This document shows positions 43,054-57,007 of a DNA stretch of 64,000 nucleotides, piece after piece. The stretch is from a virus (lineage: Duplodnaviria > Caudoviricetes). Position 1 is the first letter of the stretch. Each line of letters begins with the position of its first letter. A program made the translations under genes and the position numbers. Location: the IMG/VR virus record IMGVR_UViG_3300011577_000001; one strand, written 5' to 3'. The notes beneath the pieces were generated by a model. The model saw only the letters and a program-made list of their open reading frames with translations. It was not told where the DNA came from and did not search any database.

Positions 43054-43797
43054 TTACATGCGTGGAACAGTCACGCCGGTTTGACCCTGATACTTCCCAC
43101 CACGGTCTTTGTACGAGGTTTCGCAGGCCTCGTCAGACTCGAGGAACAACATCTGCGCTACGCCTTCGTTTGCGTAGATCTTCGCGGGCAGAGTAGTGGT
43201 GTTGGAGAACTCCAGCGTCACTTGACCTTCCCACTCAGGTTCCAGCGGGGTTACGTTGACGATGATGCCACAACGAGCATACGTCGACTTACCCAGGCAG
43301 ATGGTCAGCACGTTGCGCGGAATGCGGAAGTACTCAACCGTTTGGGCCAACGCGAAGCTGTTCGGCGGGATGATGCAGACGTCGGACTCGATATCGACAA
43401 AAGCACCCTCGTCGAAGTTCTTCGGATCGACAGTGGCCGAATTGATGTTGGTGAACACCTTGAACTTGTTGCCACAGCGAACGTCGTAGCCGTAGGATGA
43501 GGTGCCGTACGAGATCACCGGATCAATGCGATCATTGAGGACCTGGTTCTTGACGTGCTTCTTGCGAACCTGACCGTATTCGAACGGTTCGATCATTGGC
43601 TTGAAGCCCGTAACGATCGGGTCATTATCTTTCAGCCGCACAGCCCAGAAACGAGCCTCGAGGCTTTCGAGTTGCTCACGGGTGTGGGTGATACCTTCCC
43701 ACGCCGGTTCCTTGACTTCACTGGAACCCGGACGCACGTAAAGCAGGTGGGTTGGTGGAATGGACTTACGGCGAATCCAGCGATCGGATTTTATCAA
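43054..43797 (-). CDS. dcd: dCTP deaminase with an N-terminal insertion
   Basis: [61 protein letters not shown]. Confidence 0.95.
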
Positions 43798-44072
43798 TTT
43801 TTAACTCCTTTAGTAAAAGGTCTTCGATTCAGATTGCTGGTAGAGTAATCGACCCACCGGCAGTTTTCTGGAACATAATGGCCGTTGTTACTTTCGCGAT
43901 CAAGTAGATAGCCCTCTGGCTTTTCACCCATATCGAAAAGAAATTCCTGGAATGAGTCTAGCCATTTTTGACAGACCCTGATTCCTCGACCACCGTAATG
44001 TTCATATTCTGGATTGGACGGATTCGTACACCGGTTGATCATGTTAGCCCAAGCCGCGTAAGTAGGCGACAC
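43794..44072 (-). mobile_element. short, possibly truncated HNH endonuclease
   Basis: TY..W..M..RC.NP..Y..YGGRGI.VC..W..SF..F..DMGEKP...LDR..NNG.Y.PENCRW; in-frame THGHS upstream of the annotated start. Confidence 0.8.
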
Positions 44073-44419: not shown

Positions 44420-44508
44420 TTACCGCCTCAAGGGTATGTAAGAAATTATCGTATTGTATGTTGGACCCAAGATTGTCCACCTGCAACGTCCCTTTGAAGA
44501 GAGCGATC

Positions 44509-45042
44509 ATGACTGATTTAACCAAAGCCCCCAACCAGGTCATTATCGACCTGATCAATGCCGACAACGCGCCCCTGGCACTCACCGCCGAACTGGTAAC
44601 CTTCGGTCTTCCGACCGCAGCTACCGGCGAGAACCCGGCCAAAAACACCGAACTGACTGTTTCTGCTGCCGAAGGTAGCGGTTACTCTGGCTCGGTCGTC
44701 GTCACGTACAACCGTATTGCACTGTCGACCATTCCGACTATCGCCGCTGCACCTGCCGAGTTCCAACTCGGTAACGCTACCACCCTCAAGGATCTGATCC
44801 CCGAATTCAATGCCAAGTACGGCGTCAATCTGACCGACGACGATTACGTCGACGCTCCGATCCCGGAATTCACCGGTGAGCTGAACGAAGAGCACACTGT
44901 CCAACTCGTCGCCAAGGCCGACTCGCTGATTTACATCGGCTCCGTCGACATCGTGATCAAGGGTGCTGACATCCCGCTGGCTTCCGTCCTGACCAACACC
45001 GCTCTGAACGGTCTGGTCTACGAAGCACCAGTGGCTCCGTAA
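44509..45042 (+). CDS. putative virion fibre/structural protein, family A (N-module only)
   Basis: LIN..N...LT...F..P..NT..V.A...Y.G.V.V.YNR..L motif shared with its neighbours; high-expression codon bias; own terminator at 45059-45090. Confidence 0.75.
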   Translation: MTDLTKAPNQVIIDLINADNAPLALTAELVTFGLPTAATGENPAKNTELTVSAAEGSGYSGSVVVTYNRIALSTIPTIAAAPAEFQLGNATTLKDLIPEFNAKYGVNLTDDDYVDAPIPEFTGELNEEHTVQLVAKADSLIYIGSVDIVIKGADIPLASVLTNTALNGLVYEAPVAP

Positions 45043-48531: not shown

Positions 48532-49413
48532 ATGTCTAACTACATGCAGCAATCGAAGACCAGTCTTCTGAACTACCTGAACGCCAAGAACGCAACCACG
48601 TTCAAGATGACTGACCTGGTGTTCAGTGCTCCACAAGTTATCAACGGTACGTGGCGCGGGGTCGCTAACCCGCACAACACTGCGGTCCGGGTGTCCGCTG
48701 ACCCATCCAGTATCTTCCAAGGTACGGTAGTGGTCACCTACGATCGTCTCGACCTCGCGTCGATCATCAAGGTGGGTGGTTTCATCATTCGTGCTGACCA
48801 CCCGGACAGCGCTCACGATCTGTTGGACGGTTTAGCGACCTACAACGGACTGAACTTCACTGTCGACGATATCGAAGACAGCCCTGTGACTGACAACGGT
48901 AACGGTACTTACACTGTAACCCTGACCGCTAAGGCAGGCTCTTACGGTTGGATGGGTAGCGTCCTGATCGAGAACTTCGGCCAAGGTGGTGCTCCTCTGG
49001 ACCGTGTACTGTCCGGCAGCGACATGCCTGGTCTGAACTACCCGACGTCTTCGGATGGTGACGTGTACGGTGCTCTGTACCTGTACTCCTACGACTTCAC
49101 CGACTACTTCGACCTGATGATGGATCTGGAAGAAGGGGTACCGTTGACAGCTCAACAGGCTACCGATTTGGCGGCCGCTATCAACGCACTGGACGTCTCG
49201 ACTGGTGCGGGTGCGTGGAACGCCTCGTCTGAACAGGCTGCGTGGTCGCTGCAAGGTGCTGTACCGTTCCTCAACGGTCTCAACACTCCTGATCTGCTGA
49301 CTAACTCCAGCTACAAATACGCTCTGCTGTTGGATCTGCGTCCAGGTGTCACCATGCCGAAAGGTCGGTTGGCCCTACACTACAACGATCCGATTGATAG
49401 CGGTTCCGTTTAA
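48532..49413 (+). CDS. putative virion structural protein, family A
   Basis: YDRLDL, SYGWMG, GRLALHYN motifs. Confidence 0.75.
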   Translation: MSNYMQQSKTSLLNYLNAKNATTFKMTDLVFSAPQVINGTWRGVANPHNTAVRVSADPSSIFQGTVVVTYDRLDLASIIKVGGFIIRADHPDSAHDLLDGLATYNGLNFTVDDIEDSPVTDNGNGTYTVTLTAKAGSYGWMGSVLIENFGQGGAPLDRVLSGSDMPGLNYPTSSDGDVYGALYLYSYDFTDYFDLMMDLEEGVPLTAQQATDLAAAINALDVSTGAGAWNASSEQAAWSLQGAVPFLNGLNTPDLLTNSSYKYALLLDLRPGVTMPKGRLALHYNDPIDSGSV

Positions 49414-49447: not shown

Positions 49448-50479
49448 ATGTTAAGGGCTGCTATTGGTTTCGAGCACTGTCCACGTAACGTTGTGGACAC
49501 GTGGATGGCCCAATCTGGTTGGGCAGTTACACGCCACCCTATCTACCCCACTTACGGTAAAGGGTTGATCGTTGACAACGATGGATGGATCACAGTACCG
49601 GATGGGGTTGCTCCTGGGTCTGACTCCTACATTCACATTGACCTGCGTCCGCTGATGGACAGCTCCAGCAAAGCCACGTTGATTGCATTCGGTTATCGGG
49701 CTAAGTTGAAGAAGGCTGGCACCATTCCGGGTTTGGGTAACCTGTGTCTGTGGGGTTCCAACCCGAGCAACGCTGCCTCACACGCACTGGCTACTTTTGC
49801 CAACCTATTCCCAGCGGGTTCAGCAGAGGGTGCCGAGTGCTATGTTGAGATTGTGTTCGATTTGGTTTCGACCTATCGCTACACTTATGTCAACGGTGTG
49901 ATGTTGGGTAGTACGATCTACAACGGACTCAACACTGCGTTCATCAAAGCGGGCGACTTCGGTATCTACTGGTCCCCATGCAATGCAAACAACGCAGGCT
50001 ACGTTGCCATTCGTGACATCTGGGTGACAGACGATCTACCAGGCGATGGTATGACCGGTCGCTTGGGTGACATGAAAGTGCGCCCACTCTCGTTGGCTTC
50101 GGCTATTGGTAACGGTTGGTCTGCCTCTGACGGTGGTTCCCTGTTGGCTGCTTTGACTGCACCTGTCGACAAAGTTAACCCGGCGGTGATCGATTCGGCT
50201 ATTGGCGCCAGTCCACTGGACCTCAAGTTCACGTCGTCTATCCCGAGCAACGAAGTCGTGGCTGGGGTACAACTGATACTCAACTCCAAAGGCAGCAACA
50301 ACACTGCGGTGGCTGATGTTGAAATGGAGCGTAGTGGTGTCGTTACGCCAAAACGTCGAGTCCAGTTGGACACCGTTCTGAAAGGCCGTTCGATGCGTTC
50401 TTGGCCCGTGGCTCCTGACGGTGGTCGTTGGACAAATCAGAAGCTGGCTGAGACCACGGTTAAAATCTACCCAGAGTAA
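49448..50479 (+). CDS. putative fibre head / receptor-binding protein, family B (beta-sandwich, ConA/LamG-like)
   Basis: GFEH, YVEI.FD, YVNG, DIWV.D..GRLG..V, APDGG.WT...L motifs shared with 52342 and 53411. Confidence 0.6.
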   Translation: MLRAAIGFEHCPRNVVDTWMAQSGWAVTRHPIYPTYGKGLIVDNDGWITVPDGVAPGSDSYIHIDLRPLMDSSSKATLIAFGYRAKLKKAGTIPGLGNLCLWGSNPSNAASHALATFANLFPAGSAEGAECYVEIVFDLVSTYRYTYVNGVMLGSTIYNGLNTAFIKAGDFGIYWSPCNANNAGYVAIRDIWVTDDLPGDGMTGRLGDMKVRPLSLASAIGNGWSASDGGSLLAALTAPVDKVNPAVIDSAIGASPLDLKFTSSIPSNEVVAGVQLILNSKGSNNTAVADVEMERSGVVTPKRRVQLDTVLKGRSMRSWPVAPDGGRWTNQKLAETTVKIYPE

Positions 50480-50485
50480 AAGTCA

Positions 50486-51490
50486 ATGACCACTATCCGT
50501 AGCCTTCCAGCTTACGCGTTGAGTCGGTCGACCGGACGGGTGCAAGCACGCAACGCCTTTGGTTATGCTCTCATAGATACCAACGGTAAGCTGCTGCGCC
50601 CAGCCGCTGATACTGACTACCGCAAACCTGAGACTCAGTTGCTCAGAGAACTGGTTATCCGCGCCAACCCTGACGCGGCTTCCACCCTCGATTCCGGTCA
50701 GGTTGTCTATGAGACCCCGACCGCAATCCAATACGTCCGTGGTGATGAATCCAACACCACTATCGTGGCCAAGGCAGCACCGAACGCTTTGGATGTGGTC
50801 GGACGACAAACGCTTCGTTATCGTCGGATCGATCTGAGCAAGCTGTTCCGTTACCAGACCATCGAGCTGACTCGCTACAGTAACTCGAACACTTTGCCTT
50901 GGGCTGAGGTTCAGGAACTGTTGCTTAAGCAACACGGCATCAACATCTCGACTGACACCTTTACTGCTGCCAGTCTTACCGCCAACACCGTCGCAACCTT
51001 TACTGCGAAAGCTACGTCCCTGTGTTACATTGGGTCGATTCAAGTGGTGTGGCGTAAAGGTCGTCGTGAAATCAGTGAGATGTTCACCACTGCAACCTTA
51101 GATGGTCGTACGTGGCCGGAAGGTCTGATTCAGTTTGGCGATAACTACAAACCGCAAGGTGAGTACATCGCTTACGACTTCGACTTCACCGACCTGATGG
51201 GTTCATCCTTCACCAGTTGGGGGAACGGAACCATTACGAACAGTGTAAGCGAGCTGGACAAACTAGCCAACGCATTGAAACTCGCCGCACCTCAGTTCAA
51301 CTGGAACAGTGGTCAGGCCTCCGTCGAAAACGTTGGTGGCACTGCGGGTCTGATGTTCAACCGTTACGCCTTACCGAACGCCGTTGCACCAGAAGCTAAC
51401 GGAGCGTTGTATAACCGTGTAGCGATTCTGACCCCGGTACTTGGGGACACATGGTTCTACGGTCGTCTTCTGTTCCACTACAAGGTGTAA
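50486..51490 (+). CDS. putative virion structural protein, family A, with 2 N-terminal strand repeats
   Basis: YRRIDL, SLCYIG, GRLLFHY motifs; IRSLPAYAL and ARNAFGYAL repeats. Confidence 0.75.
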   Translation: MTTIRSLPAYALSRSTGRVQARNAFGYALIDTNGKLLRPAADTDYRKPETQLLRELVIRANPDAASTLDSGQVVYETPTAIQYVRGDESNTTIVAKAAPNALDVVGRQTLRYRRIDLSKLFRYQTIELTRYSNSNTLPWAEVQELLLKQHGINISTDTFTAASLTANTVATFTAKATSLCYIGSIQVVWRKGRREISEMFTTATLDGRTWPEGLIQFGDNYKPQGEYIAYDFDFTDLMGSSFTSWGNGTITNSVSELDKLANALKLAAPQFNWNSGQASVENVGGTAGLMFNRYALPNAVAPEANGALYNRVAILTPVLGDTWFYGRLLFHYKV

Positions 51491-51494
51491 GCCC

Positions 51495-51986
51495 ATGTCT
51501 ATTTACAACGATTCAAGTTTGGACGTGTTGGCGTGGTTCAACAAGAAGGCCGGCACCAAGTTCACTCGGGACGACGTGATCTTCAGTAAACCTATCGTCA
51601 ACACAGATGCTGGTGCTACGCTGAACTCCAAGATCCGTGTCACCATGTCGCGGACCAACACCACACACAAAGGGACCATCGTAGTCGCTTACAACCGACT
51701 GACTTTGGCCAACATCGCGAACTATCCGAGACCGAAGTATCCTCCCCAGGCTGCGCTCGGAAGCTCCGTCTACGACCTGTTGCCGAAGCTGCGTAACACT
51801 TACGGTATCTGGTTGACTCGAGATGACATCGAAGAGACTTTCGTGACAGACGACGGCGCTTATGGTCGGGTGTTGCTCAAAGCCAAGGCAGATTCAGTAG
51901 GTTGGATTGGCGAATACACCTTGGTACTTTCTTCGAAGATCCCGCTGGCTGATCTGTTCAAAACCAAATCTATTAACTGGAGTTAA
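51495..51986 (+). CDS. family A protein, N-module only
   Basis: Start MSIYND; YNRLTL, SVGWIG motifs; stop in frame with the next gene. Confidence 0.75.
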   Translation: MSIYNDSSLDVLAWFNKKAGTKFTRDDVIFSKPIVNTDAGATLNSKIRVTMSRTNTTHKGTIVVAYNRLTLANIANYPRPKYPPQAALGSSVYDLLPKLRNTYGIWLTRDDIEETFVTDDGAYGRVLLKAKADSVGWIGEYTLVLSSKIPLADLFKTKSINWS

Positions 51987-51989
51987 GAC

Positions 51990-52340
51990 ATGCCTATCGT
52001 CGATCCGTACTGGGCAAATTACACCTTCCGTCTGGCTCTGACTGGCTACGATGACGTTCTGTCTGAATTTAAGACAGGCGACATCATCACTCCAGAGAGT
52101 GGCGAGTTGCTGGCGCTGGCGCTGAACGAGAAGGACAAGAAGGAAGGTAAAGGTCTGTGGCACAGTGAAGTTGAACTTCCCGAGTGGTCGTTGAACGGTT
52201 GCTTCGTGTTCTTCCACGGGGACAACCACCCAGACCTGCCAACTAAAGGTAACATGCAGAAGGTCCTGATCCTGGACTTCCCGGAAGACTCCGTGAAGCC
52301 TGTCGGTCGTCTGTTCTTCACTTACAACGTGGGAGGTTGA
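51990..52340 (+). CDS. family A protein, C-module only
   Basis: Aligns with the C-half of 48532-49413 (W...WSL.G...G.N.PDL.T..L.LD...P.GRL...YN). Confidence 0.75.
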   Translation: MPIVDPYWANYTFRLALTGYDDVLSEFKTGDIITPESGELLALALNEKDKKEGKGLWHSEVELPEWSLNGCFVFFHGDNHPDLPTKGNMQKVLILDFPEDSVKPVGRLFFTYNVGG

Positions 52341-52341
52341 G

Positions 52342-53400
52342 ATGGCTCTTCGCGATATTGAACCTTTCCTGAACATCGTAGGGCGGTACACGGCTACCCT
52401 CGCCCAGCAATACTCTGCTGAGTTGGCAGCCTACAACGTCCCATATCGAGTTTATGGTGGTGATGCCTACGGTTACGGACGTGTGACCGAACTGTATCAA
52501 GAAGACGGTTGGATGGTCTTGAGCAGCGGCGGCCCTGTTACTAATGGACGGTGTTTGTGTGTGGGACGCAGCCTCCAGTCGATGGGCATCAACGTGACTG
52601 ACGATACAGTTGCGTTTGGTGGTGCTCGTATGAAATTCGGTCGCTCTGTTCCGAACGTAGCAATGACCACGCAAATGGGTTCAGCGCTGAACTTGTTATT
52701 GACTTCCAACTTCCCGCAAGGTGCAGCGGTCAATACCGAGTACTACGTTGAGTGGTGTATCGACATGCCTAACAGCTTGTTCCGTGCACGCGTTGACGGC
52801 ATCGAGGTTCCTTCTGTTGCCCTCAGTACCACGATCAAGAACAACCTCAAATCGGGTGCTAACCTGTTGATGTGGGGTTCTTACAACACCGGTGTTACTT
52901 CGGCGTTGGATATCTACCTCAAGGACGGTTACGTTCTCGAGAAGACACCCGATGGTCTGATGTCTGGTTGGTTAGGTCCGCAAAGCGTTAAGGTGTTGCC
53001 GGTTAGTGAATTCATCGGGCCTTGGACTACCAGTGGCAGTAGTCCAAAAGACGTTCTAAACTCGCCGATGCCGACATCAGCAGACCGCCTGACTCCTTTG
53101 GTGTCTTCTGACAATGATGCTACAGAAGCCACGCTGAAGTTCGATACCTCTCAGATCACTGGTTTGATCAAAGGTGTCTCGGTCAACGTGATGATGCAGA
53201 AGCTACAGGGCCGTGTGGGCAACCTCGAATCGACCATCACAGCAGGTGGGGTTGAAAGCGCTAAGACGACCATTGTTCCAGTTAACACCATGGCGATGTA
53301 TACCCAACAGGTACTCTCGGCTAAAGCACCAAATGGTGGGGCGTGGACGATTGAAAGTCTGGCCGGGGCAACCCTCAAACTCAAACCAGTAAGTAGTTAA
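52342..53400 (+). CDS. putative fibre head protein, family B
   Basis: EYYVEW.ID, RVDG, D.YV...GWLGP..V, APNGGAWT...L motifs. Confidence 0.6.
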   Translation: MALRDIEPFLNIVGRYTATLAQQYSAELAAYNVPYRVYGGDAYGYGRVTELYQEDGWMVLSSGGPVTNGRCLCVGRSLQSMGINVTDDTVAFGGARMKFGRSVPNVAMTTQMGSALNLLLTSNFPQGAAVNTEYYVEWCIDMPNSLFRARVDGIEVPSVALSTTIKNNLKSGANLLMWGSYNTGVTSALDIYLKDGYVLEKTPDGLMSGWLGPQSVKVLPVSEFIGPWTTSGSSPKDVLNSPMPTSADRLTPLVSSDNDATEATLKFDTSQITGLIKGVSVNVMMQKLQGRVGNLESTITAGGVESAKTTIVPVNTMAMYTQQVLSAKAPNGGAWTIESLAGATLKLKPVSS

Positions 53401-53410
53401 GGAGGCTAAC

Positions 53411-54517
53411 ATGGTCAAAGATGTAAGACCCATTGGGGTCGAACACCTCTCCGAGAGCTTCCTAGAGCCTCGCGCTGGGTGTGGGTTGTTCCCGCTCAAT
53501 TGGAACATGTACACTGTTAAGCAAAGCGTTCACCAACTGGTGTCGCTCTTCAAGAAAGACAATCAGATGCGCTTCGGTATGATGGCTCTGGGTACCACTG
53601 GGTCTGCTGAGGGGATGGTGCAGATCCCCATGGGTAACCTATTCGCTAACCGGACCGACATTGCCAAGGCGGTCATCGGCTTCCGCTGGAAACCAGGTAA
53701 CCGTGGGGCTTCGATCGCTGTACCGTTTGGTGTCTTATTGAACAGGGTCACATCCGAAGGTGGATATAGTCCCGATACCACGATACTATCCGTTGCGGCT
53801 GCCCAGACGGAGTGCTACTTCGAGATCGAGATCATTCCTTATAACGGTGTTGCTGGTTACGGCTTCTTCATTTATAAGGACGGTGAACTACAGTCCACTG
53901 TCGCTATGAGTGGCTGGTTCACACGTGCTCAGATGCCTACCATTCAGTTCACCATCGGTATTGGCGCTTCGGCATTGGCCAACCAGGTTAGCGGCTGGGC
54001 ACAAGGTGACTACCTGTTCTCCATGGAAGACATCTACGTTGCATGGTCTACCGAGCAAACTGACAACTTGCGCCTGGGTCCGATCCGGGTTAAGCGCTTG
54101 CCAGTTTCCCAAGTGACACTGAATGACTGGACGCCACAAGGTGGGAAGTCGGCAGTCGACATCCTGAACCTTGCTAGCAACAGTCTGGATACTCGCACTG
54201 ATTACTTGGCTAGTGATCCCGCTAACACTGTGGTTAAGTGTAAGTTGGATTTGAGTGGCCTGAAGACAGCCGATCGGGTACTGGCGGTGGGCGCCTCCAC
54301 TTCTGCTTGGCGTGACGGAGCCACTACAGGTAACTTGTCCACTCGTTGGGAACACACCGATGGACAAGGGGCGGCCGTATCTTACAGTCCGACCTCGTCT
54401 ACCTACTTGAACCAGTTCGATGTTCCTCTCCAGACTCTGATCACGACCCCAGGTGGTGCAGCTCTCACCAAAGCCTCCATGGCCGCACTGGAGCTGGTGG
54501 TCACTCCTAGCGCGTAG
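53411..54517 (+). CDS. putative fibre head protein, family B
   Basis: GVEH, ECYFEIEI, YKDG, DIYV...RLGP..V, TPGGAALT motifs. Confidence 0.6.
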   Translation: MVKDVRPIGVEHLSESFLEPRAGCGLFPLNWNMYTVKQSVHQLVSLFKKDNQMRFGMMALGTTGSAEGMVQIPMGNLFANRTDIAKAVIGFRWKPGNRGASIAVPFGVLLNRVTSEGGYSPDTTILSVAAAQTECYFEIEIIPYNGVAGYGFFIYKDGELQSTVAMSGWFTRAQMPTIQFTIGIGASALANQVSGWAQGDYLFSMEDIYVAWSTEQTDNLRLGPIRVKRLPVSQVTLNDWTPQGGKSAVDILNLASNSLDTRTDYLASDPANTVVKCKLDLSGLKTADRVLAVGASTSAWRDGATTGNLSTRWEHTDGQGAAVSYSPTSSTYLNQFDVPLQTLITTPGGAALTKASMAALELVVTPSA

Positions 54518-54524
54518 GTGAACT

Positions 54525-55277
54525 ATGTCATTCAATCTTCGTAACGCCCCAACGTACGCGGCGCTTGCGTCAGAGCAGAAGCTGAACTTACGTAACGCTC
54601 CTGTCTACGCTATTGTCGGCGACCCGCCAGGGGTGCAGCTTCGTTCTACCAGCATGTTTGTGTTGGAAGAACAAAAGTCTGCTTTCAACGTACGAAAGAT
54701 CTCAGCATTCGTTCTCGAAGCTGTTATCCCAGCCTCGTTGTTCACCAGCCTCAACGGTTTGGAAACCCTGCGCGCGGCCATCAAGAAAGAGTTAGGCATT
54801 GCTGTCAATGATGCGCTGGCCACCTTCGGGAACCCAGTGACCGTCTCCGGTACTTACAACACCGCTGTGACATTGACAGCTACTCCCGACACTGACTACG
54901 AGGGTACTGTATCTATCCAGTACAACCGATTCAAACTTGCAGAAGCGTTTAAAGGAAAGGACACTTCGCAGGTCATCGGTGCAGCCACAACGATCCACGG
55001 TCGTCTGGCAACCATCAACTCATTCTTTGGTTTGAAATTAGAACCTCGGGATGTGGTGGATAAAGTACTGTTACCAGATGCTCCAGGCTTTACGCTGGTG
55101 GTCGCTAGTACTAGCTACCTGTACCAACCCGGCACCACGATGCGCATCGGTGTTGAAAACGCTAATGACCTTAGCATTCAGATCGAAGTGGATCAGATGA
55201 ACGGCTTCTCGGTCACTACTGATCTGGAAGACTGGATTCAAGTTTCTGCAATGAAAGGATTCGAACCAGCGACTTGA
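54525..55277 (+). CDS. family A protein with 4 N-terminal strand repeats and a duplicated C-terminal tail motif
   Basis: LRNAPTYAA, LRNAPVYAI, LRSTSMFVL, VRKISAFVL; YNRF.L; DL...I.V..M.GF twice. Confidence 0.75.
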   Translation: MSFNLRNAPTYAALASEQKLNLRNAPVYAIVGDPPGVQLRSTSMFVLEEQKSAFNVRKISAFVLEAVIPASLFTSLNGLETLRAAIKKELGIAVNDALATFGNPVTVSGTYNTAVTLTATPDTDYEGTVSIQYNRFKLAEAFKGKDTSQVIGAATTIHGRLATINSFFGLKLEPRDVVDKVLLPDAPGFTLVVASTSYLYQPGTTMRIGVENANDLSIQIEVDQMNGFSVTTDLEDWIQVSAMKGFEPAT

Positions 55278-55312
55278 CGGCATAGAGGGAGGCCGCAGCC
55301 TCCCCTTATGCT
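55276..55312. terminator. bidirectional terminator with TATGC on both strands
   Basis: GACGGCATAG-AGGGAGGC..GCCTCCCC-TTATGC between convergent genes. Confidence 0.75.
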
Positions 55313-55761
55313 CAGAGCTTACGGATGGTGAGATCCACACCGCCGAGATAAACCCAGCTTCCGTCGATCGCCAGCAATTGCAGCGTCTTACTTTCACCCG
55401 AGGCTGTCGGCAACACTGCGCCGTCTTCGAACTTGAGATCGCTTGCGATCAGCTTGTAACGATCAGCAATCAAATCGATGATGCTTTGCAGCGTGTCACC
55501 GGCTTGCAGGGTGTAGGTAGTCGACTTGACGATTTCTTCGATATACAGACGACGGTAGTTCAGTGTCTGCGTGCCGTAGAATTCGTTGTTCAGAGTTGCT
55601 TCAACCGTGAGGGACGAGTTCTTCACGGTGATGTCGCCGCTGGTGTCGATCTGGAGCAGGTCCTTGAGGACGAAATCATCGAGAGTAAACGACGTGCCGT
55701 TGGTCTCGTTGATCTGGTTGATGACGTTCTGAAGCGGGCTTAAAGTGTGATCAACTAGCAC
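55312..55761 (-). CDS. family A protein (N-module), inverted orientation
   Basis: INETNGT.FT.DD, NS.L.VEA, FYG.Q.L.YRRL, SWVYLG motifs; GTG start after AGGAG. Confidence 0.7.
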   Translation of the reverse strand: MLVDHTLSPLQNVINQINETNGTSFTLDDFVLKDLLQIDTSGDITVKNSSLTVEATLNNEFYGTQTLNYRRLYIEEIVKSTTYTLQAGDTLQSIIDLIADRYKLIASDLKFEDGAVLPTASGESKTLQLLAIDGSWVYLGGVDLTIRKL

Positions 55762-55867
55762 GTTGATAACTCCTGTTGTAGTAGGGACGTCTATAACGAT
55801 AGGTGCTCGGCGACGTATCATTTGACGGGTTCACTCCCACCCACTTTCTAAAGCAGGCGTCTTTGCC

Positions 55868-56398
55868 ATGTACCACATTGGAATGAAATCAGTAGAGCAG
55901 TTACTCGCTCTGCTTAACGACACCAATGGCTTGTCGTTAACACTCGATGACATCCAGTTCAGTACTCCGACTGTGCTGACCCCAGAGTCTCAGGTAGGCG
56001 ACGACAATCCTGCCAATACAGAGATTCTGATTGTAGCCAAACCTAATCGCAAGCCGATTGGTGAGGTAACGGTTCGTTACGATCGGATTGATCTGGCTGA
56101 CTTTGCAACCCTTCGAGATCCCACCGAGATCGAAGTAATTCTCCCAATGACCCACGCAAAGTTATTGGATGCATTCAACACCCATTATGGTTCCGCGCTG
56201 GAACTAGCGGACATTGATGTCACCACCGACATCCCTGAAAACATCGAAGAAGAGACCTTCGTTGAGCTGGTAGCCTCTACGGGCTCGCTGGCTTATCGCG
56301 GGAGCATACTGCTTACGGTGATCCCAGGGACGATCAAACTCAGCAACGTGATCGTTGTACGGGCTCTCAGTGGTCTTGAGTACATGGGTCGACCTTAA
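55868..56398 (+). CDS. family A protein (N-module)
   Basis: LNDTNGL.LT.DD, NT.I...A, YDRIDL, SLAYRG motifs. Confidence 0.75.
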   Translation: MYHIGMKSVEQLLALLNDTNGLSLTLDDIQFSTPTVLTPESQVGDDNPANTEILIVAKPNRKPIGEVTVRYDRIDLADFATLRDPTEIEVILPMTHAKLLDAFNTHYGSALELADIDVTTDIPENIEEETFVELVASTGSLAYRGSILLTVIPGTIKLSNVIVVRALSGLEYMGRP

Positions 56399-56500
56399 TG
56401 AGAGGGGCTTCGGCCCCTCTCATGCCGAACTTTATATGTAAATTTTAATATCTTATGAGTAGGGCATACGCCTTACTCAGTTTTCCTTGTGGAGATCCCC

Positions 56501-57007
56501 ATGAAAATCAATGTCGCTAAATCCGGTGCCGAGAACATTCTGGACCTGGTTCTGGACGCCAACCCTGGTCTGACGCTGACCGCTGCCCAATTCACCCTGG
56601 GTAACCCAAGCGCTTTCGTGGGTACTGGTGGCCGTAACACCCAAGTCACCCTGACCGCCGTTGAAGGCGAGGGCAAGACTGGTTCCAAAACCATCGACTA
56701 CACCCGTCTGAACCCTGTTACCGGCCCGAACGCCGGTCAAGCAGTGACTGGTGTGGAAACTGCTCTGGACGCCACCGACGTACAAGTCAAGGCTGCTCTG
56801 GTTGCTCTGTTCGGTCTGGTTGCTGCCGACGTTACCGTTGCTGACCTGGTTCTGCCAGTCGACGCCGATACCGACGGTTCCATCACCCTGGCCGCTGCCG
56901 CCAACAGCCTGCTGTACGTTGGCTCCACCTCCGTCGTGCTGAAAGCGCCGGTTGAAGACCTGAGCGGTATCGAAGGTCAGATGAACGGTTTCGAACCTGA
57001 AGCCTAA
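56501..57007 (+). CDS. family A protein (N-module), probably abundant
   Basis: NPGLTLT, RNTQVTLTA, YTRL, SLLYVG, QMNGFEP motifs; extreme codon bias. Confidence 0.75.
   Translation: MKINVAKSGAENILDLVLDANPGLTLTAAQFTLGNPSAFVGTGGRNTQVTLTAVEGEGKTGSKTIDYTRLNPVTGPNAGQAVTGVETALDATDVQVKAALVALFGLVAADVTVADLVLPVDADTDGSITLAAAANSLLYVGSTSVVLKAPVEDLSGIEGQMNGFEPEA

Follow-up and report, generated by a model that had tools for sequence, protein, structure and literature searches.

Two fibre genes in the 64,000-nucleotide window, the whole stretch of jumbo phage DNA that we started from, carry N-terminal arrays of a 9-residue repeat, and we consider it likely that each repeat acts as a docking strand that mounts one monomer of a lectin-like protein on the fibre. 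The proteins involved fall into two families. Family A is, by profile comparison, Pfam DUF7941 (PF25613), a chimallivirus fibre module resembling PhiKZ gp127, and family B comprises predicted lectin-like proteins. The fibre gene A7 directly follows one family B gene, and A9 directly follows two. The features of this region are as follows.

49448..50479, + strand: B1, predicted lectin-like head protein, 343 aa (AlphaFold2 and Foldseek).
50486..51490, + strand: A7, full-length DUF7941 fibre protein, 334 aa, with a predicted 43-residue N-terminal docking extension (PF25613; E value, 5.5e-35).
50495..50521, + strand: A7 repeat 1, residues 4 to 12 (motif match and orthologue alignment).
50546..50572, + strand: A7 repeat 2, residues 21 to 29 (motif match and orthologue alignment).
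51495..51986, + strand: DUF7941 N-terminal domain-only gene, 163 aa (PF25613 positions 1 to 166).
51990..52340, + strand: stand-alone DUF7941 C-terminal domain gene, 116 aa (35% identity to residues 177 to 285 of the paralogue at 48532).
52342..53400, + strand: B2, predicted lectin-like head protein, 352 aa (27% identity to B1; E value, 1e-13).
53411..54517, + strand: B3, predicted lectin-like head protein, 368 aa (paralogue of B2; E value, 5e-5).
54525..55277, + strand: A9, DUF7941 N-terminal domain plus linker, 250 aa (PF25613; E value, 6e-20; residues 83 to 234; 72.2 bits).
54537..54716, + strand: four A9 repeats in two pairs with a 17-residue period (motif match and orthologue alignment).

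The genome contained 14 PF25613 matches, and neighboring DUF7941 paralogues scored up to 184 bits (curated cutoff, 27 bits). The match in A7 (121.6 bits) begins at residue 44, and a profile of A7 orthologues matched PhiKZ gp127 (9xqd_0, PHIKZ127) over residues 98 to 333 with an E value of 1e-5. A7 is in frame with B1, the gap between them being a TAA plus two codons. A9 is without the DUF7941 C-terminal domain and has a predicted N-terminal docking extension of ∼70 residues. The gene at 51495 is the first half of a conserved split paralogue, with one in-frame TAA within the PF25613 match in a whole-genome search, and the L013 orthologue of the gene at 51990 sits elsewhere in the array. A scan of the region for promoters and terminators found sites no more numerous than in shuffled sequence, so we make no claim of an operon. 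Proteins of the DUF7941 family assemble head to tail into filaments, for which a role as host-recognition fibres has been proposed (bioRxiv 10.64898/2026.04.21.720040; PMC13250141). Goslar gp22 oligomerizes head to tail into filaments, and DUF7941 subunits bind each other by docking a disordered linker on the N-terminal domain of the next subunit (bioRxiv 10.64898/2026.04.21.720040).

The repeats follow the pattern [LIVA]R....[YF][AV][LIA]. A7 has two copies (IRSLPAYAL and ARNAFGYAL), and A9 has four (LRNAPTYAA, LRNAPVYAI, LRSTSMFVL, and VRKISAFVL), at residues 5 to 13, 22 to 30, 39 to 47, and 56 to 64. The original prediction had described the A9 repeats as two distinct pairs, and the sequences and coordinates match that description, with two copies of LRNAPxYAx followed by two of xRxxSxFVL. 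It had not mentioned the period, which is exactly 17 residues in both A7 and A9. Across 977 six-frame ORFs of at least 60 aa in the 240-kb genome, the motif matched 12 times, and half of these matches (6/12) were the A7 and A9 repeats. When a relaxed motif was combined with a periodicity filter, N-terminal arrays were found across the 240-kb genome only in A7 and A9, as had been claimed for the two family A genes that follow B genes; the sole other match to the relaxed motif lay in a 114-aa minus-strand ORF with a 21-residue spacing. A word-indexed search with A9 residues 1 to 72 returned close orthologues only and is uninformative on repeats outside the B context.

The repeats were kept in all A7 and A9 orthologues, at 64 to 78% identity, and persisted where the orthologues fall to about 25 to 30% identity. 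At the DNA level, the repeat units shared 33 to 49% nucleotide identity, with identical residues encoded mostly by different codons, and Tandem Repeats Finder reported no match in the repeat DNA. This divergence indicates that the likeness of the repeats is maintained at the protein level and does not stem from recent duplication. The A9 pairs evolve in concert, with within-genome pair identities of 0.73 and 0.65 versus 0.29 between pairs; repeats at the same position across genomes had identities of 0.48 to 0.63. Recent duplication or gene conversion as the cause of the pair similarity was ruled out by the differing codons and the lack of a tandem repeat in the DNA.

The same association was found in related phages. 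Across 17 loci, all 32 DUF7941 genes directly after B genes carried repeats (29 by the tight motif and 3 as visible variants), compared with 0 of 162 other DUF7941 genes, and repeat number tracked B gene number, as originally proposed (Spearman rho, 0.82 across 34 cases); because these cases are phylogenetically related, there were fewer independent events than the split and the correlation suggest. Repeats and B genes were also lost together. In L013, L016, L017, L029, L030, L035, and L040, there is no B1-type gene, and the A7 orthologues are without repeats, starting instead at a conserved TDYRKP motif. L038 is about 70 to 75% identical to L030, yet it has both a B1-type gene and repeats.

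The lectin-like character attributed to family B in the original prediction was upheld for B1 by AlphaFold2 and Foldseek, which identified a ConA-like lectin domain. Modeled alone, B1 reached a pLDDT of 93.9, with a ConA-like jelly roll at residues 1 to ∼205 and a CBM-like beta-sandwich at residues ∼206 to 343. Foldseek matched the B1 model to legume lectins, TtX122, and BoNT Hcn domains with a probability of 1.00, and VIA-align aligned the N-terminal jelly roll of family B with solved ConA-like folds at Z scores of 10 to 13.7 over model residues 1 to ∼200. The jelly roll also resembles the phage receptor-binding domains 8zdo_a and 9n6a_A. The C-terminal sandwich of B1 is predicted from the models to hold the strand-acceptor site. 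A model of a fusion relative that includes the donated strand aligned with the CBM35-type structures 3zm8_A (Z score, 10.1; 119 residues aligned, 205 to 358) and 4qhx_A (Z score, 10.0; 205 to 359); middling Z scores of this kind are frequent, and each range marks only its outermost aligned residues.

Family B comprises 848 clusters at 50% identity and is without a Pfam model. A Pfam scan gave no match for B1, B2, or B3, and Laminin_G_3 (PF13385) matched 1 of 128 family members weakly (E value, 0.0019); long B forms have additional Laminin_G_3 domains. A megablast search of the region against GenBank phages gave no match, and in a tblastn search with B1, B2, and an L019 B protein against 50,697 GenBank phage records, B homologues were confined to Burkholderia phage FLC9. 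In the tree of family B, B2 and B3 each fall in a distinct clade, that of B3 being well supported. The automatic cluster name "FscB" was discarded, as only unrelated papers were found under that name.

Docking was modeled with two copies of B1 and A7 residues 1 to 48. The ipSAE values were 0.81, 0.83, and 0.79, and the best of three controls scored 0.00. In calibration, 58 of 80 solved complexes and 2 of 110 mismatched pairs had reached the pass mark; these counts apply only roughly here because the prediction used custom alignments and three chains. The runs shared at least 89% of their contacts, with a partner pLDDT of about 70. It is important to note that ipSAE is the model's own confidence and that extended peptides are easily laid on sandwich edges, yet all controls scored 0.00.

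Each repeat docked in the predicted complex (ipSAE, 0.81), as had been anticipated for B with repeat peptides. Repeat 1 was placed on B1 copy 2 and repeat 2 on B1 copy 1, against the same B1 residues; A7 residues 4 and 21, which are equivalent repeat positions, both touched B1 residues 248 and 280. The peptide ran antiparallel to B1 strand 274 to 280, and the predicted B1 interface comprised residues 206 to 216, 236 to 240, 245 to 261, 265 to 289, and 307 to 343 plus the N-terminal strand. Conservation was higher at interface residues than elsewhere in B (P = 9e-5), but the difference was not significant within the C-terminal domain alone (P = 0.135), so that interface conservation argues only weakly for docking. 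The models thus predict strand docking at a stoichiometry of one repeat to one B monomer. Of the original proposal of two sites per receptor-binding type, the two sites for B1 appear in the model, and each site takes a single B1 monomer.

Natural fusions of B, repeat, and DUF7941 point the same way. The metagenomic phage L018 encodes two such proteins (612 and 499 aa), both with a single repeat for each B. In an AlphaFold2 model of the fusion fragment P0075:1-366, a distant homologue, the repeat forms a DSSP strand at residues 347 to 359 (pLDDT, about 89 to 93) and docks in cis on the B domain, which is the only pairing partner available to it there. The claim that a repeat is a beta-strand of the B sandwich therefore agrees with the predicted complex and with the fusion model, but its corollary, that folding depends on the strand, does not fare as well: B1 alone, expected to show a sandwich missing a strand, was predicted with confidence. 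The acceptor fold may therefore be complete, and the repeat could simply augment a sheet edge of B without completing its fold.

In PhiKZ/Goslar-type jumbo phages, flexible fibres built of DUF7941 proteins hang from the peripheral baseplate. In the reading that we favor, with one repeat per B monomer, each repeat would form a beta-strand antiparallel to residues 274 to 280 in the C-terminal CBM-like sandwich of one B monomer, with the conserved RLGPxxVKxLP segment of family B on its other flank, and this docking would tether a single B monomer to the fibre at each repeat. A7 would then carry two B1 monomers, and A9 would carry four monomers, probably two each of B2 and B3, and the ConA-like domains would serve as multivalent carbohydrate-binding heads in host recognition. 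We infer that the B proteins are virion components that bind host sugars and that the A9 repeat pairs are divided between B2 and B3. A further step, in which each repeat type is specific to a B paralogue and the order and number of repeats form a sequence-encoded code that sets the identity, order, and number of the displayed lectin heads through strand complementation of the CBM-like domain, is possible but less likely than not.

A stricter version, in which every B needs a pair of repeats (either two strands for each B monomer or exactly two sites for each B gene), the number of repeats is twice the number of upstream B genes, and the docking code is hard-wired, appears unlikely. The rule of two repeats per B gene in the original prediction does describe this locus, where one B gene precedes two repeats and two B genes precede four in two distinct pairs, and it describes 18 of 34 cases, including the distant lineage L019, with the rank correlation given above. 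The rest depart from it, with one repeat after one B gene (7 cases), three after two (4 cases), five after two, one after two, three after one, four after four, and eight after six, the last in Burkholderia phage FLC9. Moreover, the predicted complex has one repeat per B1 copy, and L018 and its natural fusions have one repeat per B. We rejected the 2:1 rule as a general law on the count of the 34 cases.

It is also improbable that B is an assembly chaperone or a temporary cap, released later as in donor-strand exchange. Such a role would fit the docking predictions equally, the B gene sits just before its would-be client, and pilus chaperones are generally known to use strand complementation. 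However, the ConA-like domain resembles sugar-binding modules and phage receptor-binding domains, the long B forms add Laminin_G_3 domains, the B-repeat-DUF7941 fusions are permanent and covalent, and the B paralogues are diverse and expanded, as is usual for receptor-binding proteins.

Alternatively, the repeats might dock a baseplate protein or the N-terminal domains of other DUF7941 subunits, where the fibre would branch, with adjacency to B genes reflecting only shared regulation. Docking of the DUF7941 linker on the next subunit is known, but the linker motif of the paralogues (L..L.G[LF]..) is unlike the repeat motif, repeats are gained and lost with B genes and fused to B in L018, and both the complex and the cis-fold models put the strand on B, with controls at 0.00; we consider this explanation very unlikely. 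That the repeats are chance or a neutral low-complexity expansion with no binding role, for which only the small size of the motif speaks, is already contradicted by the conservation data and has almost no probability, given the strict 17-residue period, the conservation in distant orthologues despite diverged DNA, and the repeat-free state of the other 162 paralogues.

The A proteins belong to the same family as the chimallivirus DUF7941 fibres (Goslar gp22/gp23 and PhiKZ gp126/gp127) and here form a large paralogue array. Some chimallivirus members have carbohydrate-binding modules, with a proposed role in host recognition at the peripheral baseplate (bioRxiv 10.64898/2026.04.21.720040; PMC13250141). 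In Goslar, the DUF7941 module carries sugar-binding or hydrolase domains as C-terminal fusions, whereas here separate lectin-like proteins are predicted to sit noncovalently on N-terminal tandem strands, and in L018 they are fused N-terminally. Two structural papers on DUF7941 fibres mention neither the repeats nor family B (bioRxiv 10.64898/2026.04.21.720040; PMC13250141).

The predicted docking resembles that of chaperone-usher pili (Fim and Pap), in which an N-terminal extension gives a beta-strand to the sandwich of another subunit, and the natural B-repeat fusions resemble engineered self-complemented pilins. In contrast to pili, several donor strands lie in tandem on one scaffold, the acceptor is the CBM-like sandwich of a two-domain lectin rather than an Ig-like pilin and has a confident predicted fold even when the strand is absent, and the setting is viral, within a phage structural gene array. 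The arrangement is also reminiscent of the cellulosome scaffoldin, where tandem docking sites, which can differ in type, recruit carbohydrate-active modules. However, docking in the cellulosome relies on folded cohesin domains and the Ca-dependent dockerins that they bind, while the docking sites here are 9-residue strands at a 17-residue spacing with no relation in sequence or fold, and cohesin and dockerin Pfam domains had no match in the A or B proteins. In CBA120 TSP1-4, G7C gp63.1/gp66, and lactococcal BppU-BppL, a single adaptor bears several receptor-binding proteins, and the genes are clustered; mounting in such branched complexes involves the N-terminal region of the partner and folded trimeric adaptor domains. 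Here, the prediction is instead a monomeric linear strand array on a polymerizing fibre subunit, with one monomeric head per strand.

Together, the sequence comparisons and models suggest tandem-strand mounting of host-binding lectin heads, which has not been described before for phages; in PhiKZ/Goslar-type jumbo phages, the DUF7941 "fibre cloud" itself was first described in 2026. Family B, an uncharacterized family of 848 clusters, now has a predicted fold and partner, and searches of metagenomic jumbo phages for adaptor proteins can make use of the 9-residue motif. The locus offers a concrete proposal for host recognition, in which each of the short tandem strands on particular fibre subunits recruits one free-standing lectin-like protein. 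If correct, this would account for the lectin genes interleaved with fibre genes and would allow heads to be swapped or multiplied without reengineering of the fibre, as the gains, losses, and fusions among relatives would illustrate, and strand complementation, known from bacterial pili, would extend to virus assembly. Should the repeats also prove to be a code, no assembly system of the donor-strand type would have been described in a virus before it, and it would give chimallivirus-like jumbo phages a cellulosome-like, evolvable plug-in scaffold for host-range modules.

The viral contig that holds the window is 240,392 bp long and an estimated 87% complete. From 44.5 to 57 kb, the window carries an array of paralogous genes, all on the same strand. 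These belong to DUF7941 (PF25613; phrog_1037, "virion structural protein"), here called family A, which had 14 matches in the whole genome. Three genes of a second family, B, which are paralogues of one another, interrupt the array, and two family A genes, A7 and A9, directly follow them.

Family B genes and the family A genes that follow them (window coordinates; all on the strand of the array).
49448-50479, B1, interrupts the array; no Pfam family
50486-51490, A7, after B1; DUF7941 match starts only at residue 44
52342-53400, B2, interrupts the array; no Pfam family
53411-54517, B3, interrupts the array; no Pfam family
54525-55277, A9, after B2 and B3; DUF7941 match starts at about residue 74-83

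The DUF7941 module mediates head-to-tail oligomerization, by which Goslar gp22 forms filaments; in some members, a sugar-binding or hydrolase domain is attached at the C terminus, and a "fiber cloud" anchored on the peripheral baseplate has been proposed for these proteins (10.64898/2026.04.21.720040). PhiKZ gp127 is located on the outer baseplate, where the gp139 band ends (PMC13250141), and the profile of A7 orthologues matched its chain 9xqd_0 (E value, 1e-5).

Motif and periodicity scans confirmed the N-terminal repeats originally described. They start at residues 4 and 21 of A7 and residues 5, 22, 39, and 56 of A9, a strict period of 17 residues. The motif, [LIVA]R....[YF][AV][LIA], occurred 12 times in the 977 six-frame ORFs of at least 60 amino acids in the 240-kb genome, and 6 of these occurrences were the A7 and A9 repeats; a relaxed, periodicity-aware scan of the genome found no N-terminal array besides those two. 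At the DNA level, the units were only 33 to 49% identical, shared residues were mostly encoded by different codons, and Tandem Repeats Finder detected no tandem repeat in this DNA. This divergence indicates that the similarity of the peptides has been kept by selection. Among A9 orthologues, the two repeats of a pair from one genome were more alike (identity, 0.73 for one pair and 0.65 for the other) than repeats at the same position in different genomes (0.48 to 0.63), and identity to the other pair was 0.29; at the sequence level, this fits a single partner for both members of a pair.

Close relatives (64 to 78% identity) showed full synteny and kept the repeats. We extended the comparison to 17 loci from more distant genomes, in which A and B genes were identified by HMMs and which were drawn from a representative search, one metagenome scan, and Burkholderia phage FLC9, the sole cultured relative. 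In these loci, repeats were present on all 32 DUF7941 genes directly after a B gene (29 by the tight motif and 3 as visible variants) and on 0 of 162 other DUF7941 genes. Seven loci (L013, L016, L017, L029, L030, L035, and L040) lacked a B1-type gene, and their A7 orthologues began directly at the conserved TDYRKP motif. Locus L038 had the B gene as well as two repeats, although its flanking protein and A7 orthologue are ∼70 to 75% identical to those of L030. By gene content, then, B genes and repeats co-vary in presence and absence. In one locus (L018), two proteins (612 and 499 amino acids) are natural fusions that join B to DUF7941 through a single repeat; this locus also has a B gene that stands alone, and the A gene after it carries one repeat. 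Because B1 and A7 share a reading frame and are separated by TAA and two codons, such fusions are one mutation away in the window.

The original prediction held that each upstream B gene is matched by two repeats. Across 34 cases, many of them orthologous and hence not independent, repeat count correlated with the number of immediately upstream B genes (Spearman, 0.82).

Number of immediately upstream B genes and number of repeats.
2 B genes, 4 repeats: 10 cases
1 B gene, 2 repeats: 8 cases
1 B gene, 1 repeat: 7 cases
2 B genes, 3 repeats: 4 cases
2 B genes, 5 repeats: 1 case
2 B genes, 1 repeat: 1 case
1 B gene, 3 repeats: 1 case
4 B genes, 4 repeats: 1 case
6 B genes, 8 repeats: 1 case

The ratio was exactly 2 in only 18 of the 34. 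The rule thus applies to this genome and to a frequent state among the cases but fails as a general law. In FLC9, gp310 has eight exact 17-residue units and is preceded by six B-like genes.

Family B is a large family that has neither a name nor a Pfam model. A profile search with it gave 848 clusters at an E value of ≤1e-3, mostly stand-alone proteins of 330 to 390 amino acids; 128 sampled members had no convincing Pfam match. AlphaFold2 modeled B1 from a 128-sequence alignment (pLDDT, 93.9; pTM, 0.91) as an all-beta protein of two domains. Structure comparison of the model placed the N-terminal domain among the ConA-like lectin/glucanase jelly rolls, with matches to legume lectins, TtX122, sialidase lectin domains, and two mycobacteriophage receptor-binding or baseplate domains; the C-terminal domain is modeled as a beta-sandwich. 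Extended forms occurred in two more distant phages, FLC9 (gp314 to gp316 and gp310) and L019 (10001-11713, 12823-14166, and 15308-16531), where a B-like domain or a repeat-bearing DUF7941 protein continues into a long C-terminal region that contains Laminin_G_3 (ConA-like) domains. Extra lectin modules have been added to both heads and adaptors in these two phages.

We predicted the complex of two B1 copies (128-row alignment) with A7 residues 1 to 48 (7-row alignment). Three runs gave ipSAE values of 0.81, 0.83, and 0.79, and the best of three controls gave 0.00; in the tool's calibration, which is only rough for this design, 58 of 80 solved complexes reached its pass mark, as did 2 of 110 mismatched pairs. 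At least 89% of contacts were common to the runs, and partner pLDDT was ∼70. In the predicted complex, repeat 2 lies on one B1 copy and repeat 1 on the other, and both copies engage through the same C-terminal-domain residues (206-216, 236-240, 245-261, 265-289, and 307-343) plus the N-terminal strand. The equivalent A7 positions 4 and 21 each contact B1 residues 248 and 280. Since contacts move from B1 residue 280 to 274 as the peptide runs from 21 to 28, the peptide would be antiparallel to strand 274-280, with the conserved RLGPxxVKxLP segment (B1 206-214) on its other side. Interface residues were more conserved than the remaining residues of the whole B protein (P = 9e-5); within the C-terminal domain alone, they were not significantly so (P = 0.135).

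As an independent check, a different predictor was applied to a B domain ∼30% identical to B1, in residues 1 to 366 of the natural fusion protein P0075, a fragment comprising the B domain, a 6- to 7-residue linker, one repeat, and nothing further. AlphaFold2 (pLDDT, 90.9) placed the repeat as a DSSP strand at 347-359 (pLDDT, ∼89 to 93), which, given the content of the fragment, implies pairing in cis with the B domain. Residues 205 to 359, including the donated strand, aligned to CBM35-type sandwiches (Z, ∼10). Docking of a strand into the C-terminal sandwich of B is borne out in these predictions. The confident prediction of lone B1, in turn, gives no support to strict donor-strand complementation, in which the acceptor would be incomplete without the strand.

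Other features of the array were also observed. A single in-frame TAA divides one DUF7941 paralogue into two genes (51495-51986 and 51990-52340) exactly where the N-terminal domain gives way to the linker and C-terminal domain, so that the N-domain gene encodes 163 amino acids and the C-domain gene 116. Every relative keeps the split, FLC9 among them (gp318 and gp317), and L013 has its C-domain gene at another place in the array, which marks it as a real separate gene and not a readthrough artifact. N-domain-only paralogues (∼170 to 180 amino acids) are found at 44458-45042, 55312-55821 (minus strand), 55868-56398, and 56489-57007. At their C termini, these and A9 have short tails with G[FL] (e.g., ..MNGFEPEA and ..KGFEPAT) that look like the linker which, in the model for Goslar, docks onto the following subunit, and the N-domain-only proteins may be fiber chain terminators or branch pieces.

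In relatives, the array is flanked by head-tail joining genes (PF24214/PF24215) and, just upstream, by a Peptidase_S80 gene (L002, 4015-4764; L006, 3557-4366; L007, 3952-4761), a member of the PhiKZ gp175-type prohead protease family. These flanks support placing the array in a module of structural genes of the PhiKZ-like (chimallivirus) type. In one relative only (L004, 3212-3844), a gene for a GIY-YIG/I-TevI-like homing endonuclease is inserted upstream of the array, and in the window a 92-amino-acid ORF just upstream (43794-44072, minus strand) was judged by eye a putative HNH-type endonuclease remnant. The near-complete relative L006 (GCA_024105335.1; contig JAHLJO010000090.1; 241,743 bp), in which B1 was called truncated (212 amino acids), sits in an assembly labeled Streptomyces sp. 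CHB9.2. The G+C content of the window, ∼52%, is far below that typical of Streptomyces, so this contig more probably represents a phage that infects a different soil bacterium and was sequenced along with the assembly than one that infects Streptomyces.

The best-supported model is one repeat per B monomer. A7 would be an adaptor for two B1 monomers and A9 an adaptor for four, in the simplest case two each of B2 and B3, with the lectin domains facing outward as host-binding heads on DUF7941 fibers. This model agrees with the core of the original prediction, a strand entering the C-terminal sandwich of B, and alters its counting rule. It is less likely that the B proteins are transient assembly chaperones, and likewise less likely that the repeats dock onto other DUF7941 subunits. 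Neither 10.64898/2026.04.21.720040 nor PMC13250141 mentions N-terminal repeats or stand-alone lectin partners, and a full-text literature search for phage receptor-binding proteins that use a donor-strand mechanism found nothing. Strand complementation and the attachment of receptor-binding proteins as modules are already known kinds of mechanism, of which the arrangement here is a variant, and it would be of substantial interest if binding is confirmed.
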